64,000 nt of DNA, from positions 161 to 64,160 of IMG/VR virus record IMGVR_UViG_3300045747_000276. One strand, 5' to 3'. The translations under genes and the position numbers were made by a program. Positions 23,274-61,592 of this stretch are shown in pieces. The stretch is from a virus. Taxonomy: Duplodnaviria; Caudoviricetes. Each line of letters starts with the position of its first letter. The stretch's first letter is position 1. The notes beneath the pieces are model-generated. The model saw only the letters and a program-made list of their open reading frames with translations. It had not been told where the DNA came from and searched no databases.

Positions 23274-24410
23274 ATGCTTTATACGATTTACAAAATTACG
23301 AATAAAATGACAGGTCAGATTTATATTGGGCAACACATTACTGATAATTTGAATGACGGTTATATGGGTTCGGGCAGTAGAATCATAAACTCGGTTGCAA
23401 AATATGGAAAAGACCAATTTGATAAAGAAATTCTGTTTGTGTTTGATAATTTTGATGATATGGACCGAAGCGAGGCTGAATTAGTAAATGAAGAATTTAT
23501 TAAACGACCTGACACATATAATGTAGTATTGGGCGGAACAGGTTGGTGCAGCAAAGGAACTGTTACTGTAGAAGATTTATTAAATCCAGGCATTTTTATT
23601 AGGATACCAACTGACCATTTTGATTCTAAAATCCATAGGTATCCAACTTCAGGTTCGGTACAGGTTTACTTAAAAACAACAGGTGAGAAAATCAGAGTTA
23701 ATATGGAAGAATACAGAACTAATAAATCTCTGTATAATGCTGTATCAACCGGTAAGGTATCTATTAGAAACATAAAGACAGGAAAAACTTCTTCTATTGT
23801 AGTGTCGGAGTTTGATCCAAAAATTCATGAAAAAGTCCTTGGTGGTATCGTGGCAGTAAAAGAAGGTATTAAACAATACGTATCAAAGGAAGAATTTGTG
23901 CATAGTGGGTTGCAGGGTGTGCACAAGGGAAAAATAACCGCGGTAGATAAAGAAACAGGAGTTAAAAAGCACATAACACAGGCTGAATATTATGCAGATA
24001 AAAATAGATATTTACCCAATGGTTCAGGAACCACTTTAGTGAAAGATAAGTCGACCGGTAAACGGTATAGAATAGCTACTGAGTTAGTCGATAACACGCA
24101 GCATGTAGTAGGAACATCTGGGTGGGCTACAGTATACGACATAGCATTAGGTAAATTTTTAAATATCACTAAAGGAACAATAGATAATAGTAAACACAAA
24201 CGAGCTAGTGATAAGAAGTTTGTTTGCTACAATCCAGATGGTACAATTAAATTTGAATTTTGGGGCGGAAAGCAAGAATTTTTGGGAAGATATAAATGTC
24301 CTGCAAGCGTATGGGAATCTGCAGTAAAAGGAAATACATTTAAATCAGACAGAGCAGGTAGTAAGGATTTTAATGGGTGTAATTTTGTGCTCATTGATTG
24401 GAAGTCCTAG
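23274..24410 (+). mobile_element. Free-standing GIY-YIG (Seg-like) homing endonuclease splitting nadV
   Basis: 'YTIYKITN...YIGQH...DGYMGSG'; repeated C-terminal units; CATAAATA late-promoter-like site at 23244-23251. Confidence 0.88.
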
Positions 24411-40476: not shown

Positions 40477-40664
40477 AGGAAAAGTTCAGCAAACATACAC
40501 TTTACGTAAATACTAATACTAATGTATGGAGATTCTCGAAGGAGATGACAGATCGGAAAGACGGTATGCCGATAGGAAAGACTATTGCTAATTGATAAAA
40601 GTAGTCAATGACTCTGTGACAAAGACACAGTAATAGTGGTAATCCACAATACTTTTCCTGTTAA
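40477..40664 (+). ncRNA. TCAGCAA-box structured RNA, copy 1
   Basis: aggaaaagt-TCAGCAA...acttttcct-GTTAA; several internal hairpins. Confidence 0.7.
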
Positions 40665-40669
40665 AATTT

Positions 40670-40906
40670 TGGATAATTTCAGCAATTATTAAACGACAAA
40701 TGCTGTTGACGGTGCCTTGTTTGGGGTGATGTGTAGTTATGTTAGAAATAACACACCAATGGAACAGATATGCGATGTAACAGAAAACACATCGGGTGAA
40801 GAGACCTTACATCTTATAGCTCATAAGCGAAAGTTATGATATTGCGTGGAGGGTTTCAGGTAACACGCGTGAATAAATTGAAACAAGACCTCAGATATCC
40901 AGTTAA
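40670..40906 (+). ncRNA. TCAGCAA-box structured RNA, copy 2
   Basis: tggata..TCAGCAA...tatcca-GTTAA; multi-stem interior. Confidence 0.65.
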
Positions 40907-40915
40907 TCGAATAGT

Positions 40916-41045
40916 AGGATAGATTCAGCAACTAATTAAAAGTACTAAGACGGCATATCGAAGCGGACTGATAATCTCCGTGGATATATGCCAAACAAGT
41001 TTTTGACAGTCACTTGTAAAATAAACTACCAAAGCTATCCTGATA
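40916..41045 (+). ncRNA. TCAGCAA-box structured RNA, copy 3
   Basis: aggatag.t-TCAGCAA...ctatcct-GATA. Confidence 0.65.
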
Positions 41046-42803: not shown

Positions 42804-42878
42804 GTCGCATTAGACTTCTAGTGAGGTCATCAGCCTTTCACGCTGACCAGACGGGGGCAGAACCCGTATGCGACTCCA
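42804..42878 (+). tRNA. tRNA-Glu(TTC)
   Basis: tcagc-CTTTCAC-gctga; atypical T-loop GGCAGAA; TCCA. Confidence 0.85.
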
Positions 42879-42999: not shown

Positions 43000-43582
43000 A
43001 TGTTCTATTATTTGTATGAGATAACCAATAAGGTTAATGACAAAATTTACGTAGGGGTGCATAAGACATCAGATTTGAATGATGGTTTATATGGGCTCTG
43101 GAAAGATAATTCAGCATGCAATTGCAAAGCATGGTGTACTGAATTTTTCTAAAGTCATACTAGAGCATTTTGATACATCAGATGCTATGTATGCAAGAGA
43201 AGCAGAATTGGTGAATGCCGAATTCTTAGAAAGAGATGACGTGTATAACCTCCGTAGAGGAGGACATGGCGGGTTTGATTACATTAACAAATATTGTGGT
43301 AATCAGGGTATCCGGATGAATTCACACATGTCTAATGAGACCAGACGCAAGGGTGCATTTAAAATGATTGAAATATGTAAACGTGACGGATTGGGTGTTT
43401 ACTCAGATTCCAGAATAAACATATTTAAAGATAAATCATTCCAAGATGAAATGACAAATAGGGCCAGAATTCATAATATGGGTTCTAAATGGGTCACTAA
43501 TGGTATAGAGAATAGAAAAATAAAGAAAGATGTTTTGATACCTGATGGGTGGAAATTAGGTAGAGTCATTAAGCCGCTGTAG
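43000..43582 (+). pseudogene. Frameshifted GIY-YIG homing endonuclease
   Basis: MFYYLYEITN..YVGVH..DG then YMGSG in another frame (one extra T near 43087); CATAAATA at 42975. Confidence 0.8.
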
Positions 43583-43652: not shown

Positions 43653-43735
43653 AGGATGAATTCAGCAACCAATTAAAATCTGTCTGTGGTTTTCGATTTT
43701 CCACTTAAATAAAAAGTAGGTATTCATCCTGTTAA
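43653..43735 (+). ncRNA. TCAGCAA-box structured RNA, copy 4
   Basis: aggatgaat-TCAGCAA...attcatcct-GTTAA (perfect 9-bp stem). Confidence 0.7.
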
Positions 43736-43860
43736 AATCAATCGGAGTAATTGACCGAAAAGTAAATGTTGATCATCTTGGCTATTTGGGTGATCCATGC
43801 AGTGTTACACAGCTATGAAAAGACGGGGTAAGAATCCTCACGTAAAGTATGCAGAAATAT

Positions 43861-43944: not shown

Positions 43945-44038
43945 TTCCCAGTTTACCTCACATCGCGCGAGAGGCAATGGAGTCACATATTTTATATGTG
44001 TGCGGACAACATGAGTTCAATTCTCATCTGGGAAGCCA
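43945..44038 (+). ncRNA. Atypical tRNA-like RNA (TTT at anticodon position)
   Basis: Acceptor ttcccag/ctgggaa-GCCA; T-arm atgag-TTCAATT-ctcat; enlarged D region. Confidence 0.65.
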
Positions 44039-44133: not shown

Positions 44134-44207
44134 GCCCGGTTAATTAAAAAGTATAATATTCGCCTGATAAGCGAAATTCAGAGGAGCGTTACCTCTACTG
44201 GGTACCA
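44134..44207 (+). tRNA. tRNA-Ile(GAT)
   Basis: ttcgc-CTGATAA-gcgaa; T-loop AGCGTTA; ACCA. Confidence 0.82.
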
Positions 44208-44295: not shown

Positions 44296-44355
44296 AGAAT
44301 GCGTTCAGCAAACAAAAAAATTCAACTTTTAATTGAAAAATAAGCATTCTGTTAA
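44296..44355 (+). ncRNA. TCAGCAA-box structured RNA, copy 5 (carries a Lys-UUU anticodon stem-loop mimic)
   Basis: agaatgc.t-TCAGCAA...ttcaa-CTTTTAA-ttgaa...gcattct-GTTAA. Confidence 0.72.
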
Positions 44356-44359
44356 TTTT

Positions 44360-44433: not shown

Positions 44434-44560
44434 GTTATGGACGAAAGACGCGAAAGCGGTTTAGTATGTCCACCAAGTTTTGTAGTTTGATCGGTCAGAT
44501 CATGTTAAAGGCGATGCGCATCTTAATGATAATATGTGCAGCCTACTACAGGTTGATTAT

Positions 44561-44636: not shown

Positions 44637-44710
44637 AGTGCATTAGGCTAAAAGAAAACCATGTGTCTCATAAGCACAATTCGATGGAGCGTTACCATCA
44701 TGCACTACCA
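44637..44710 (+). tRNA. tRNA with CAT anticodon (Met or Ile2)
   Basis: tgtgt-CTCATAA-gcaca; ACCA. Confidence 0.82.
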
Positions 44711-45156: not shown

Positions 45157-45231
45157 GCATCCAGAGCCAGTCAGCACAGGCACTCGTCTGCAAAACGAGG
45201 TAATAGAGGGCAGCACTCTATGGGTGTTCCA
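45157..45231 (+). tRNA. tRNA-Cys(GCA)
   Basis: ctcgt-CTGCAAA-acgag; T-loop GGCAGCA; TCCA. Confidence 0.8.
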
Positions 45232-45908: not shown

Positions 45909-46577
45909 ATGTTATATTACTTATATGAAATTAGGAATAATATCAATGGCAAAATTTACATTGGTGTTCATAAGTCTAATGATATAGATGATGGTTATAT
46001 GGGATCGGGTGCTCTCATCCAATTAGCTATAAAGAAGTATGGGATTGAAAATTTTACCAAGACTATATTAGAATATTTTGATGATTCCAAATCAATGTTC
46101 TTAAAGGAATATGAGATTGTCGATATTGAGTTTGTATCTCGCAGAGATACATATAATTTGGCGATTGGAGGATGTGGTGGATCTATGTTACAAAACAGAA
46201 GATCATTTTCAGGAAAGCATTCTGATCAATCGAGGAAAAAAATTTCAGATAGCAGTAAAGGAAGAATAGTTGCAGATGCAGCAAAAATAAATATGTCTAG
46301 GCATCATTGGGTAAAGTTGGACCCAGTTGCTCAGAAGGAACACTCCATATATGCTGCCAGAAAATCTGTTGAATCTAGGAAGATGAATAACAATATCTCA
46401 TACAACAAGGTTTCGTGTTCATTGTTGGAACGAAATAAAGAAAATAGAGATTGTGGTATTCCTCATCACAATAGTGGGATTCCAAAGAAAAAGATTGAAT
46501 GTCCCATATGTAATAAGATGGTGGCTATTAACACTGCCAACAGATGGCACTTTGATAACTGTAAAATGAGAACTTAG
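45909..46577 (+). mobile_element. GIY-YIG (SegB-like) homing endonuclease with NUMOD3
   Basis: 'YLYEIRN...YIGVH...DGYMGSG', 'GKHSDQSRKKIS'; CATAAATA at 45884. Confidence 0.88.
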
Positions 46578-47154: not shown

Positions 47155-47160
47155 GATTAT

Positions 47161-47225
47161 GGGAAAGTTCCGAAAGGACGCAGCCTGATAGGTTGATGAC
47201 AGCAAACAAAAATTCTTTCCCGCCA
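47161..47225 (+). ncRNA. T-armless tRNA-like RNA carrying the CAGCAAAC box
   Basis: gggaaag/ctttccc-GCCA; tcc-GAAA-gga; cagc-CTGATAG-gttg; CAGCAAACAAAAA. Confidence 0.6.
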
Positions 47226-47272
47226 ATTACATCCTCTCCCATCCTGATTTTTTGTAAGCAGGAAATTGATTG

Positions 47273-47363
47273 GATTTTATAGTTTAATGGTAGAACAGCG
47301 GATTTATATCCCGTATGCAACAGATAATTGGTTAGTCCAGGTTCGAGTCCTGGTGGGGTACCA
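47273..47363 (+). tRNA. tRNA-Ile(TAT)-like, long variable region, weak acceptor stem
   Basis: gcgg-a-TTTATAT-c-ccgt; ccagg-TTCGAGT-cctgg; ACCA. Confidence 0.6.
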
Positions 47364-49929: not shown

Positions 49930-50270
49930 TGGTAGTAAACTGATCGTAAGAAACGATTGCAACACGGGAGTGCAACTCTCCTCACCTCCACCATAAGAAC
50001 TCTGAATCTTGCAGCAATGCATGATCAGGTTTGGTACTCCAGATCCCTCTTGCACGGTAACACCGATAACAAAGACAGATGCACCGAGAGTTCTTTTGAT
50101 GGGGGTGCCTTAGGATCGACTGCGAAAGAAGTACAATGCATTGGCTACTCGTCACAGATAGACGTAAAAAGTAAAACGCAATTAAATGCAAACGACGAAA
50201 GATTCGCTTTAGCCGCATAGGCCTAGCGTAAGGAGTTCGATGGGTTGTCCTTATAACAGACTCAACCCAT
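49930..50270 (+). ncRNA. ssrA: Circularly permuted (two-piece) tmRNA
   Basis: Acceptor piece ends cacctcc-ACCA at 49993; coding piece begins GGGGGTG at 50101 (G3.U70); tag ANDERFALAA* at 50188-50220. Confidence 0.92.
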
Positions 50271-51005: not shown

Positions 51006-51079
51006 ATCGGTATCGTCTAAGAGTAGGATGGTTGCCCCTCAAGCAGCAGATCGGATTGCAATTATCCGTACCGATTCCA
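51006..51079 (+). tRNA. tRNA-Glu(CTC)
   Basis: gttgc-CCCTCAA-gcagc (C33); TCCA. Confidence 0.75.
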
Positions 51080-51273: not shown

Positions 51274-51362
51274 GGAAGATTATTGATGCAGGTGCATCAC
51301 ATTGCCTCGAAAACAATTGGGGTCCTAAAGGGCCTGGGGTTCGATACCTCAATCTTCCTCCA
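51274..51362 (+). tRNA. tRNA-Ser(CGA)
   Basis: attg-c-CTCGAAA-a-caat; long variable arm; TCCA. Confidence 0.78.
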
Positions 51363-51967: not shown

Positions 51968-52486
51968 ATGAAAACAGTAGTAGTTTATTTCCATGGGTAT
52001 GCCAGTTCCCCAAATTCTGACAAAGTAGATAGGTTGCGTTCTGCTGGATTTGATGTATATTCATTTCCAATTGATGTTAACCCAGATATTTCATTACCAG
52101 CATTGAGGGACAGTATTGATCAAATGCTGGTGGGTTATAATGATTATGACACAAGGGTGGTGTTTGTCGGAACCTCATTGGGTGCGTGGTATGCGTCAGT
52201 TATGGGGGTTGAATATGATGTATTCTCAATACTAATTAACCCATCATTCGCTCCTAACCCATCATTACTAAAATATGATGTTCCTAAAGATATTGTTGAA
52301 AAATATTTTAGAATGGAAGTCATAACAGGTGCAAAGTATTTCATCGGATTAGAAGATGAAGTTTTAAAATTCGACAAAGTGATGTTATCACATTTAGATA
52401 CAACTTATGTCGAAAATGCAGGTCACAGATTCAATGGCCCAGAATTCGATTTAGTTATAGAATATATTAAAGGTCTTGTTAAGTAA
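51968..52486 (+). CDS. YqiA/UPF0227-like alpha/beta hydrolase
   Basis: 'YFHGYASSPNS.K', 'GTSLG', 'INPS', 'DEVL', 'GHRF'. Confidence 0.85.
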   Translation: MKTVVVYFHGYASSPNSDKVDRLRSAGFDVYSFPIDVNPDISLPALRDSIDQMLVGYNDYDTRVVFVGTSLGAWYASVMGVEYDVFSILINPSFAPNPSLLKYDVPKDIVEKYFRMEVITGAKYFIGLEDEVLKFDKVMLSHLDTTYVENAGHRFNGPEFDLVIEYIKGLVK

Positions 52487-52546
52487 AAAGAATACTACGA
52501 CTTTGACATAGTCGAATCAGAGGAGCGTTACCTCTACAAGATACCA
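52473..52546 (+). tRNA. tRNA-Val(GAC)
   Basis: cgact-TTGACAT-agtcg; T-loop AGCGTTA; ACCA. Confidence 0.78.
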
Positions 52547-60121: not shown

Positions 60122-60177
60122 AGTTTGGGTTCAGCAACCTATATCAATCATACTGAAACCAAAGTCCAAACTGTTAA
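60122..60177 (+). promoter_or_regulatory. TCAGCAA-box element, copy 6, in the 5' UTR next to the RBS
   Basis: agtttgg-gt-TCAGCAA...ccaaact-GTTAA-aaggaatttaaATG. Confidence 0.72.
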
Positions 60178-60188
60178 AAGGAATTTAA

Positions 60189-61592
60189 ATGAACGCATTT
60201 GTTAACGCTATCGGTACTCCAAATAAGACTGTAACTACCAATGGAATGGTAGCATTCGATAAGACAGGCTCCAAGTTGGTAGATATGTTCTTCAACATTG
60301 GTGCAGCTCGCAACAACCCAAATATTGTTCCTCAATTCATGCAAGCATTTGCAGAGGACAAACTGTTGGCCACAAAGATGTTATTCTGGGCCCGTGATGT
60401 TCGAGGTGGAGCAGGTGAACGTAAGGTTTTCCGTGATATTTTGTCAAAGCTGGCAGTAACTAACCCAGATTTAGTGAAGAAGAATTTGCCGCTTGTGGCA
60501 AAGTATGGTCGTTGGGATGACCTCCTTATCCTTAAGGGTGATGTATTGCAATCTGCATATCGCCTAATTGGTACTGCCATTAAATCAGGCAATGGTCTGT
60601 GCGGTAAGTGGATGCCCCGCAAGGGCCCAGAGGCTGCAGCACTTCGGTCAGCACTTGGGATGTCACCAAAACAATACAGAAAGACCCTTGTCGGTTTAAC
60701 GTCGGTTGTTGAGACCCAAATGTGTGCTAAGACATGGGATAACATTGAGTTCGGTCATGTGCCTTCAATTGCAGCAGCACGGTATCAAAAAGCATTCGCA
60801 AAGAACGCTGAGGTGAAGTATAAAGAATATCGAGACGCTCTAGTTACTGGTGAAGCAAAGATCAACGCATCTAGCATTTTCCCTCACGATGTTATCAAGA
60901 GCCTGCAGTCGGGTCTGGTAGATGTTGCAACAGCACAATGGAATGCATTACCTAATTATCTAGGTGACCAAAAGGTGTTGGCACTGGTTGACGTGTCAGG
61001 TTCTATGTCCTGCCCAGCAGGAAAGAATAGTAACACAACATGTCTAGATGTGTCATTGTCCCTTGGTTTGTATGTGTCGGACAAATTGACTGGTGCTTTC
61101 AAGGATACATTCTTGACATTTAGTGCATCACCACAATTGTTGACCCTTAAAGGTTCTATTGCAGAAAAGTTAGGACAATTGGAGTCATCTGATGATTGGG
61201 AAATGAATACTAATATTGAATTGGCGTTTGATGCAATTCTTAAGACGGCAGTAAAGGCAAATGCTCCCCAAGAGGATATGCCAGATGTTCTGTTGATTAT
61301 GTCAGATATGCAATTTGATCAATGTGCAGATTGGGGCGACACCATGCAAACTATGATGCAACGCAAGTATGAAAATGCGGGGTATAAGGTGCCTACAATT
61401 GTGTTCTGGAATCTCAATGGTTCACACGGAAATGTGCCTGGCACATCCGTTGATAAGGGAGTTATGATGGTTTCTGGGTTCTCCCCAGCAATCCTTAAGG
61501 CAGTTCTTGCCTGTGATCTGACCAATGTCACACCATACAGTATGATGTTGGAGGTCCTAAACGGTGATCGTTACGCAAACGTAACCGTATAA
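60189..61592 (+). CDS. DUF2828-family helical plus vWA protein (putative Ro60/TROVE-like RNA-binding protein)
   Basis: 'RDVRGGAGER', 'YGRWDDL', 'KWMPR', MIDAS 'DVSGSM', 'SDMQFD', 'FWNL', 'SGFS'. Confidence 0.82.
   Translation: MNAFVNAIGTPNKTVTTNGMVAFDKTGSKLVDMFFNIGAARNNPNIVPQFMQAFAEDKLLATKMLFWARDVRGGAGERKVFRDILSKLAVTNPDLVKKNLPLVAKYGRWDDLLILKGDVLQSAYRLIGTAIKSGNGLCGKWMPRKGPEAAALRSALGMSPKQYRKTLVGLTSVVETQMCAKTWDNIEFGHVPSIAAARYQKAFAKNAEVKYKEYRDALVTGEAKINASSIFPHDVIKSLQSGLVDVATAQWNALPNYLGDQKVLALVDVSGSMSCPAGKNSNTTCLDVSLSLGLYVSDKLTGAFKDTFLTFSASPQLLTLKGSIAEKLGQLESSDDWEMNTNIELAFDAILKTAVKANAPQEDMPDVLLIMSDMQFDQCADWGDTMQTMMQRKYENAGYKVPTIVFWNLNGSHGNVPGTSVDKGVMMVSGFSPAILKAVLACDLTNVTPYSMMLEVLNGDRYANVTV

Follow-up and report, generated by a model that had tools for sequence, protein, structure and literature searches.

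Introduction

Y RNAs tether and gate Ro60. Mimicry of tRNA by a Ro60 partner is already known for the bacterial YrlA RNAs (PMC4201824), whose Mycobacterium smegmatis form is reported to have a 7-bp acceptor, to be cut by RNase P and to have CCA added (PMC4201824). YrlA has been described as resembling a circularly permuted tRNA without a free CCA end (Wang et al., 10.1101/312249), and in the parts of the YrlA literature considered here processing toward a more canonical tRNA appearance was raised only as a possibility. In the Thermus phage phiLo, a Ro60 homologue is encoded with the small partner RNAs Yrl1 and Yrl2 (PMC12135203), and the Ro60-binding motif of bacterial and phage Y RNAs is given as GNCGAA(N)G or CGAA (PMC4201824, PMC12135203). 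Our search of the literature on related partner RNAs found only the YrlA and phiLo work. Here, we analyze a 65-nucleotide (nt) element at positions 47161-47225 of a 64,000-nt stretch of phage DNA, positions 161 to 64,160 of the IMG/VR virus record IMGVR_UViG_3300045747_000276, which we call the window. The window covers nearly the whole 64,160-base record, for which the completeness estimate is 36%. The element combines tRNA ends with a module built around the sequence CAGCAA (the box), which recurs elsewhere in the window, in one case next to the gene of a DUF2828/DUF7788 protein with a predicted Ro60 fold. Our preferred reading, at middling confidence, is that the element encodes a very small partner RNA of the Ro-like protein, processed like a tRNA; it is probably related, in miniature, to the Y RNAs that mimic tRNA.

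A 65-nt element with tRNA ends in a tRNA array

The tRNA array lies on the + strand at about 42.7-52.6 kb of the window. ARAGORN called 29 tRNAs in the window, 28 of them within the array, and Rfam added further ones. The element starts 6 nt after the CCA of a tRNA-Val gene (47154), and a spacing of 5-7 nt is found in 14 of the 28 tRNA gaps of the array; an RNase P site may lie between 47160 and 47161. Its parts (Table 1) follow each other as the acceptor 5' strand, two nt, a hairpin in the D-arm position, the capped stem CAGCC/GGTTG, the linker ATGA, CAGCAA with its A-rich strand, the acceptor 3' strand and GCCA. The strands GGGAAAG and CTTTCCC form seven Watson-Crick pairs with zero G-U pairs, and positions 47196-47214 are unpaired, a helix being impossible at the T-arm site. 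The fold of minimum free energy, at -17.3 kcal/mol, is the structure described here.

The preliminary description of this DNA had reported the 7-bp acceptor with GCCA, the GAAA-tetraloop hairpin in the D position and a stretch of 13 nt shared with another copy of the box. All of these are present, and the 13-mer CAGCAAACAAAAA at 47200-47212 is identical to 44306-44318, which lies in a linear box RNA (copy E). Its observation is thus confirmed, and its interpretation is partly supported, as set out below.

Among the features of a tRNA, the element possesses the 7-bp acceptor, the discriminator and CCA, and it has neither a T arm with its TPsiC-type loop nor a GG-bearing D arm. It is not among the 29 genes called by ARAGORN, and the Rfam tRNA model (RF00005) did not report it even at E<=5, the threshold for a tRNA match being 29 bits. 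An Ile-like anticodon arm had been proposed for the capped stem, and if a 4-bp stem is drawn, the 7-nt loop CUGAUAG does carry U33 and A37, which together with the 7-bp acceptor and GCCA would suit a T-armless decoding tRNA-Ile(GAU). We regard such a tRNA as extremely improbable. Apart from the absent T arm and D-loop GG and the failure of both tRNA searches, the phage already has a tRNA with the anticodon GAU at 44134-44204 (Rfam 47.8 bits; anticodon read by eye), and bacterial EF-Tu needs an acceptor/T helix. Moreover, the loop letters are accounted for by CCTG and TAGG, the termini of the box family. The arm is better read as the loop-closed terminal stem of that family, and full hybrids of related phages read CCT-GTTA-AGG at this place.

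Linear box RNAs and a Ro60-like protein

The sequence TTCAGCAA is common to six intergenic sites on the + strand of the window (copies A-F). In each of them, it stands after the 5' strand of a stem, and GTTAA(A/T) stands after the 3' strand. Family members are built on a (T)AGGnnnn/nnnnCCTG stem formed by their two ends; CAGCAA adjoins its 5' strand, and the RNA runs out in a tail of GTTA(T)n. Copy E, whose inner hairpin has the loop CTTTTAA and whose tail reads GTTAATTTT, sits in register between tRNA-Arg and tRNA-Pro, and copy D likewise sits in register between tRNAs. Using a covariance model, R1, built from 12 short family members (alignment A1), we obtained matches for copies D-F (Table 1) and only partial ones for the larger copies A, B and C, which score 27.1, 24.6 and 23.1 bits, respectively, with a weight matrix derived from 125 non-redundant 5' halves taken from relatives only.

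To survey the family, 80 IMG/VR loci around DUF2828 homologues and 80 more around an atypical tRNA of the array were fetched. The box design also occurs upstream of the DUF2828 gene in the fetched loci, with stems that covary freely. R1 found 90 copies in the 80 DUF2828 loci, all on the strand of the gene, and 50 further copies in the 80 tRNA-array loci. Of the 85 loci with enough sequence, 73 have a box no more than 400 nt ahead of the DUF2828 gene, a count that is partly circular because the weight matrix was built from the same loci; box sites at DUF2828 loci number 224 on the same strand and 3 on the opposite one. By its location, the family is linked to the DUF2828 gene.

The DUF2828 protein carries the label 'RNA-binding protein' in PHROGs. 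The collections contain no close relative: the nearest homologues of the protein share 46% identity among GenBank phages and, in IMG/VR, 55% (54% when its full length is counted). Neither phmmer on PDB sequences nor a search of NCBIfam gave a match. An AlphaFold2 model based on 26 aligned homologues reached a predicted local distance difference test score of 77.9. In a fold search, the closest solved fold was the Ro60 of phage phiLo (9kop, 9l5y), matched at E 4e-9 to 2e-7; Deinococcus Rsr and Xenopus and human Ro60 matched as well, with 13 chains in all at E<=0.001 and the matches spanning the whole length of the model. This fold search is the only link between the DUF2828 protein and Ro60. 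Since the model has the Ro60 fold, the box RNAs are candidate Y-RNA-like partners of a divergent Ro60, and the DUF2828 protein may be their protein partner. By title and abstract, mentions of DUF2828 in the literature searched are incidental, and none links RNAs to it.

The family extends from minimal to tRNA-containing RNAs. Minimal members such as copy E enclose a lone hairpin with a 7-nt loop resembling an anticodon loop (CTTTTAA, CTTGTAA), and some linear members enclose parts of a tRNA. In L072:1655-1768, the stem and box are followed by an anticodon-like hairpin, a T arm, a loop-closed acceptor, a D arm and the closing strand of the stem; this inner, tRNA-like part matches the Rfam YrlA model at 40.9 bits, over positions 24-84 only and below the gathering score of 69. 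The suggestion that the box family is connected to tRNA mimicry therefore holds for the relatives, whose family members carry tRNA-like domains. In addition, tRNA cores without an acceptor stem, scoring up to 55.5 bits, were seen at L072:1459-1517, L070:2594-2652 and L027:1477-1527; these cores (Rfam positions 7-64 or 9-63) appear to sit within large box RNAs.

tRNA/box hybrids are a conserved class in related phages

We scanned for structures in which a 7-bp stem with NCCA surrounds a CAGCAA that has a hairpin in front of it. Besides the element, the scan returned L003:1157-1276, L104:2267-2385 (the same sequence occurs in L139) and L156:11752-11869. These three hybrids of 118-120 nt are located in the tRNA arrays of relatives; sixteen other candidates of the scan were judged to be chance without detailed study. 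A 17-mer from the D arm of the hybrids then identified 15 viral contigs (L288-L302) with eight distinct sequences, seven of which have an intact acceptor. The 5' half of a hybrid consists of the acceptor 5' strand, a canonical D arm, GCTTATAAAAGGT, the hairpin TATCCT-GTTA-AGGATA and the linker CAGT; the 3' half consists of CAGCA(A/C), an A-rich stretch, the hairpin TTCC-ATGTCAA-GGAA, the T arm, the acceptor 3' strand and ACCA. The Rfam tRNA model gives one such hybrid 47.8 bits, treating 57 nt within its anticodon arm as an insert.

In the alignment of the seven hybrids, 95.6% of the cells are paired, and nine pairs, located in the acceptor, the box hairpin and the T stem, change on both sides. 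Among 500 shuffles, one reached this number of pairs and none reached the covariation score. Hybrids of this kind form a conserved class among related phages, and the earlier naming of the element as a tRNA/box hybrid stands insofar as it combines tRNA ends with a box module. The proposal that the box replaces the T arm does not fit the full hybrids, which keep their T arm and have the box between the capped hairpin and the anticodon-like hairpin.

The hybrids are linked to the linear family by rotation. The loop GTTA of the hybrid hairpin equals the conserved tail of the linear family, and the ends of its stem equal the CCT and AGG of the family. When L072:1655-1772 was cut in the acceptor loop and rotated, 82 of 107 positions were identical to the L003 hybrid, and the score rose to 89.5 from 48.5 unrotated, the best of all rotations tried. 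The hybrids are thus circular permutations of tRNA-containing box RNAs, with the RNA ending at a true acceptor stem with CCA rather than at the putative protein-binding stem.

How the element fits the family and the hybrids

The element shares the order of its modules and the 4-nt linker with the hybrids, whose linkers of 4-5 nt read CAGT, CATA or CGTT, and like them it ends in NCCA and stands in register in a tRNA array. The hybrids differ in measuring 115-120 nt, in being found by the Rfam tRNA model, which does not find the element, and in keeping the canonical D arm, the anticodon-like hairpin, the variable region and the canonical T arm. Positions 47181-47195 are the equivalent of the terminal stem of the family (..CCTG / TAGG..) and of the TATCCT-GTTA-AGGATA hairpin of the hybrids: CCTG-A-TAGG corresponds to the 3' end of the family joined to its 5' end. 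The spacing of the linear family, with CAGCAA 1-4 nt behind the (T)AGGnnnn strand, recurs as TAGGTTG-ATGA-CAGCAA. The ends of the linear family do not recur, as the stem of the element is capped by a loop, the RNA ends at the acceptor-like stem and the GTTA(T)n tail is absent. The D-position hairpin reads UCCGAAAG, which by eye fits the Ro60-binding motif GNCGAA(N)G save for the first G; this likeness is probably a coincidence because the segment is not conserved in the hybrids.

In the model tests, the weight matrix ranks the element seventh in the window at 17.8 bits, after the six true copies (22.6-27.3 bits) and before the next site at 10.9 bits. A model of the central module of the seven hybrids (R3, alignment A5) places the element (47176-47218) first among all matches on both strands of the window at 14.3 bits, and it aligns GGACG (47176-47180) to the 3' side of the D stem of the hybrids. 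These tests are consistent with membership, albeit weak.

Could the resemblance have arisen by chance within an A/T-rich spacer? The 13-mer alone is not significant: allowing up to 2 mismatches, it matches 9 times where 4.5 are expected, and 4 shuffles in 100 reach 9; the 8-mer CAGCAAAC is enriched, with 8 matches against 2.2 expected and none of 100 shuffles reaching 8. Random flanks gave a perfect 7-bp stem in 568 of 20000 trials, and one with NCCA behind it in 6 of 20000. Elements with a 7-bp stem and NCCA numbered 15 in 116 kb outside the array, both strands counted. A chance origin could draw on the unremarkable 13-mer and on the modest model scores given below, but register, perfect stem with NCCA, CCTG/TAGG capped stem, linker length and box coincide within 65 nt, and we consider it very improbable.

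Several results weigh against reading the element as a processed Ro-partner RNA. Its fold beats shuffles only modestly (z = -1.8; 13 of 200 shuffles fold as well). With the weight matrix, 2 of 20 shuffled windows reached 17.7 bits; the R3 match is weak (E 0.29), the next match following at 13.0 bits; a model of the full hybrid (R2) gives the element 6.3 bits (E 4.8) and mostly finds ordinary tRNAs; and R1 does not match it at E<=10 with filters off. The circularity of the 73 of 85 count belongs here too. No homologue of the element was found in the collections searched, which may lack records close to the window, and the conservation and covariation described above thus concern the hybrids and the linear family. 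Specifically, blastn of the region 47155-47272 found nothing beyond chance matches in GenBank phages, the longest 41 nt; an exact 24-mer of the element had no match in IMG/VR; and in 165 fetched loci (1.4 Mb) blastn-short matched over at most 21 nt. A first gapped pattern of the element had one match in IMG/VR and at least 120 in metagenomes, and among the matches listed, none of the 121 loci examined had an acceptor-like stem with NCCA; a second gapped pattern had seven IMG/VR matches, none with the flanking sequence of the element. In four DNA sequencing runs, contigs left 47160-47247 practically uncovered, and no RNA run was among those listed. Bacterial RNase P, in addition, normally reads a stacked acceptor/T helix, which the element does not have. 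Finally, the neighborhood is decaying, since a broken tRNA-Thr(UGU) anticodon arm lies right behind the element, and the GCC of GCCA could come from the 5' end of that tRNA-Thr relic.

The relic, 20 nt downstream of the element within the 47-nt spacer 47226-47272, has three extra T in its loop, and a 12-mer of it is identical to intact tRNA-Thr genes of five relatives. The start of the spacer (GCC..ATCCT) bears a faint likeness to the 5' part of the tRNA-Thr of relatives. We also asked whether the spacer sequence CATCCTGATTTTTT closes, on the 3' side, a linear box RNA that begins at TAGGTTGA. This candidate was rejected, as the stem mismatches at 2 of 8 positions, and it was further ruled out by the same letters forming the 5' strand of the tRNA-Thr anticodon-arm relic.

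Several of these points favor a second explanation, in which the element is a decayed internal piece of a former full hybrid, reaching from the D loop to the start of the anticodon-like hairpin, without function and with fortuitous terminal pairing. Deletions or recombination in a repeat-rich array with homing-endonuclease-like genes could have produced it. MAFFT aligns the element to hybrid positions ~19-78 without long gaps; the T arm, the anticodon-like hairpin and the canonical D arm are absent; the element is a singleton; and besides the broken tRNA-Thr arm, the array contains GIY-YIG-like open reading frames (ORFs), with matches below the Pfam cut-off. Yet the matching segments of the hybrids are not complementary, whereas the element has seven perfect pairs with NCCA, the combination obtained in 6 of 20000 random trials. 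It also stands at the usual 6-nt distance behind a tRNA, and both of its internal hairpins are intact. We consider decay the main rival explanation, though rather unlikely. Minimised or decayed, the element looks derived and not ancestral, contrary to the idea that it may show the origin of the box family.

A third explanation would keep the processing and drop the protein: a processed tRNA-like RNA independent of the Ro-like protein, acting as a decoy or competitor for tRNA-directed host enzymes or as a structured spacer that aids cutting of the array, with the box inherited and idle. The acceptor-like stem, CCA and register suit a processed RNA, several other atypical CCA-ended tRNA-like genes lie in the array, and the minimal box RNAs have look-alikes of anticodon loops. 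However, the parts of the element that best match relatives are exactly the box module, and once the capped stem is assigned to this module no anticodon-like hairpin is left, which renders this explanation improbable. A processed small RNA of the Ro-partner kind is favored because the element stands in register, closes perfectly with NCCA and at the same time has its box module intact.

Genomic context

Other genes of the window include those for a ribonucleotide reductase, QueC, an RNA ligase and the DUF2828/DUF7788 protein, as well as a TGT-like gene. A 215-amino-acid ORF neighboring the element has no relatives in IMG/VR. ORFs resembling GIY-YIG homing endonucleases were seen in or near the array at 43079-43582, 45909-46577 and 23274-24410; two of the three were scanned and gave Pfam SegE_GIY-YIG matches below the cut-off, and the third was assigned by eye from its N-terminal sequence.

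The array contains further unusual tRNA-like genes. Those at 44134-44207, 44637-44710 and 52473-52546 have in common a T arm of unusual sequence, GGAGCGTTACC, and D arms that are rich in A/T and devoid of GG; for this type, exact matches to the 17-mer AGAGGAGCGTTACCTCT were obtained in 85 IMG/VR stretches, many with a box RNA directly behind. Genes in register with a 7-bp acceptor and CCA lie at 42804-42878, 43945-44038, 45157-45231 and 51006-51079; they had no ARAGORN call and no Rfam tRNA match at E<=5, and their T loops look non-canonical by eye. The 'tRNA-Ile(tat)' at 47273-47362 is 90 nt long with a low score of 38.6 bits, a long insert after the anticodon arm and an acceptor that by eye consists mostly of G-U pairs; a similar 92-nt gene is found at L003:2172-2263. 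At 51274-51358, Rfam reports a tRNA-Sec match at the gathering score (47 bits). Directly behind tRNA-Pro, at 44437-44476, a 5-bp stem TGGAC/GTCCA followed by CCA encloses a GCGAAAGC hairpin (by eye). Relatives also have a class of 65-67-nt genes in register between tRNAs (beginning with GCGGT and ending with TCCA), which is conserved and missed by ARAGORN; it is a different short tRNA-like class.

Table 1. Coordinates of the element, its surroundings and the RNA and protein genes discussed; positions refer to the window unless a locus is named.
Feature	Position	Strand	Remarks
A/T-rich spacer GATTAT	47155-47160	+	between tRNA-Val CCA and element
Acceptor-like stem, 5' strand GGGAAAG	47161-47167	+	
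Hairpin TCC-GAAA-GGA	47169-47178	+	3 bp, D-arm position
Capped box stem CAGCCT-GAT-AGGTTG	47181-47195	+	alternative drawing CAGC-CTGATAG-GTTG
Linker ATGA	47196-47199	+	4 nt
Box CAGCAA with A-rich extension, 13-mer CAGCAAACAAAAA	47200-47212	+	
Acceptor-like stem, 3' strand CTTTCCC	47215-47221	+	
Discriminator G and encoded CCA	47222; 47223-47225	+	
Relic of tRNA-Thr(UGU) anticodon arm, CCTG-ATTTTTTGTAAG-CAGG	47243-47262	+	in spacer behind element
Box RNA copy A	40477-40659	+	tandem with B and C, larger; stem read by eye
Box RNA copy B	40670-40901	+	tandem, larger; stem read by eye
Box RNA copy C	40917-41041	+	tandem, larger; stem read by eye
Linear box RNA copy D	43653-43738	+	R1 40.6 bits
Linear box RNA copy E	44296-44359	+	R1 68.4 bits; stem AGAATGC/GCATTCT; box at 44306
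Linear box RNA copy F	60122-60179	+	R1 55.1 bits; ends 10 nt before DUF2828 start codon
DUF2828/DUF7788 protein	60189-61592	+	predicted Ro60 (TROVE + vWA) fold
Permuted (two-piece type) transfer-messenger RNA (tmRNA)	49931-50220		inside array; 91.7 bits
65-67-nt GCGGT... class	L124:7555-7619		
65-67-nt GCGGT... class	L161:88-154	-	
65-67-nt GCGGT... class	L014:4633-4699		
65-67-nt GCGGT... class	L026:4654-4718		
65-67-nt GCGGT... class	L068:159-223		

Discussion

Among the described systems, YrlA (RF02553) comes closest to the box family. In both, a known or candidate partner RNA of a Ro60-type protein is encoded beside the protein gene and is modular, with a known or putative protein-binding helix and a tRNA-like domain. 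There are also differences. As described, YrlA carries the motif GNCGAA(N)G, and the box family has CAGCAA beside the (T)AGG/CCTG stem instead. YrlA ends at its Ro-binding stem and has a closed acceptor, whereas the element and the hybrids have an open acceptor, an encoded CCA and a capped putative binding stem, the hybrids showing the opposite gene order. The element itself is without D or T arms and is not matched by the Rfam YrlA model. Phage phiLo likewise has a phage Ro60 homologue with small partner RNAs just upstream of the gene. However, its CGAA motif lies in a stem-bulge-stem, and the account of these RNAs describes no placement in a tRNA array and no CCA-ended form (PMC12135203).

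The linear box RNAs also share their layout with the Dictyostelium Class I RNAs (RF01414): these are described as ~55-60 nt long and closed by a short terminal stem, with a conserved motif ending in ACAGCAA by the 5' strand, CUGU at the 3' end and a middle that varies (PMC7919456). The Rfam model of these RNAs scored copy E at 35.4 bits, L026:2928-2980 at 29.6 bits and L003:1342-1396 at 23.0 bits, all below the gathering score of 41.5, and did not match the element itself. Class I RNAs differ in being eukaryotic and in binding Rnp1A, a protein with an RNA recognition motif, and they are reported to be unique to dictyostelids (PMC7919456).

One fold in two gene orders is further known from two-piece tmRNA and from the permuted tRNA genes of algae (the latter cited in 10.1101/312249), and the same phage has a permuted tmRNA as a second RNA gene of this type. 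In those cases, processing restores one functional form, whereas here both orders seem to give different mature ends. A short tRNA-ended RNA without a T arm and a non-tRNA gene in a phage tRNA cluster have precedents in the T-armless mitochondrial tRNAs and in the small stable RNAs of the T4 tRNA cluster, respectively. The element differs from these in that nothing points to decoding by it.

If the element is indeed a minimal, tRNA-processed Ro-partner RNA, it would be transcribed together with the tRNA array. An RNase P cut at 47161 would free its 5' end, as suggested by the 7-bp acceptor-like stem followed by GCCA, and the encoded CCA would form the 3' end. The resulting 65-nt RNA would present a protein-binding module, composed of the loop-capped short helix CAGCC/GGTTG, the 4-nt linker and a single-stranded strand of ACAGCAA with A-rich sequence, to the Ro60-like DUF2828 protein of the phage. 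Compared with the full hybrids, both the T arm and the anticodon-like hairpin would be gone, and a tetraloop hairpin would be all that is left of the D arm. Processing by RNase P, stability based on CCA and binding to the protein are conceivable by analogy with what is described for M. smegmatis YrlA (PMC4201824) and phiLo Ro60 (PMC12135203). Downstream, the RNA might serve the Ro-like ring as a tether or gate, in the manner of Y RNAs.

Mimics of tRNA among the partner RNAs of Ro60 are an already known kind; what is new here is a variant form. We tentatively propose, at low confidence, that this phage group encodes partner RNAs of a divergent Ro60 in two permuted gene orders and that, among natural Y-like RNAs with a free CCA end of the tRNA type, the element is the smallest. 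If so, RNase P would cut it, the CCA-adding enzyme would keep or repair it, and it would couple the Ro-like ring to enzymes of tRNA handling or RNA repair during infection. The CAGCAA-box family and its two permuted gene orders in tRNA arrays may deserve more attention than the 65-nt element.

The 65-nt form would be a minimal substrate for probing recognition by the Ro-like protein and a test case for the role of tRNA-type ends in stability, repair or recruitment. Together with its larger relatives, the element would show that a very common second family of phage Ro60-like proteins (DUF2828) has its own, differently signed partner RNAs, that these reside inside tRNA arrays, and that both circular permutations of one design exist in nature, one ending at the protein-binding stem and the other at true tRNA ends.

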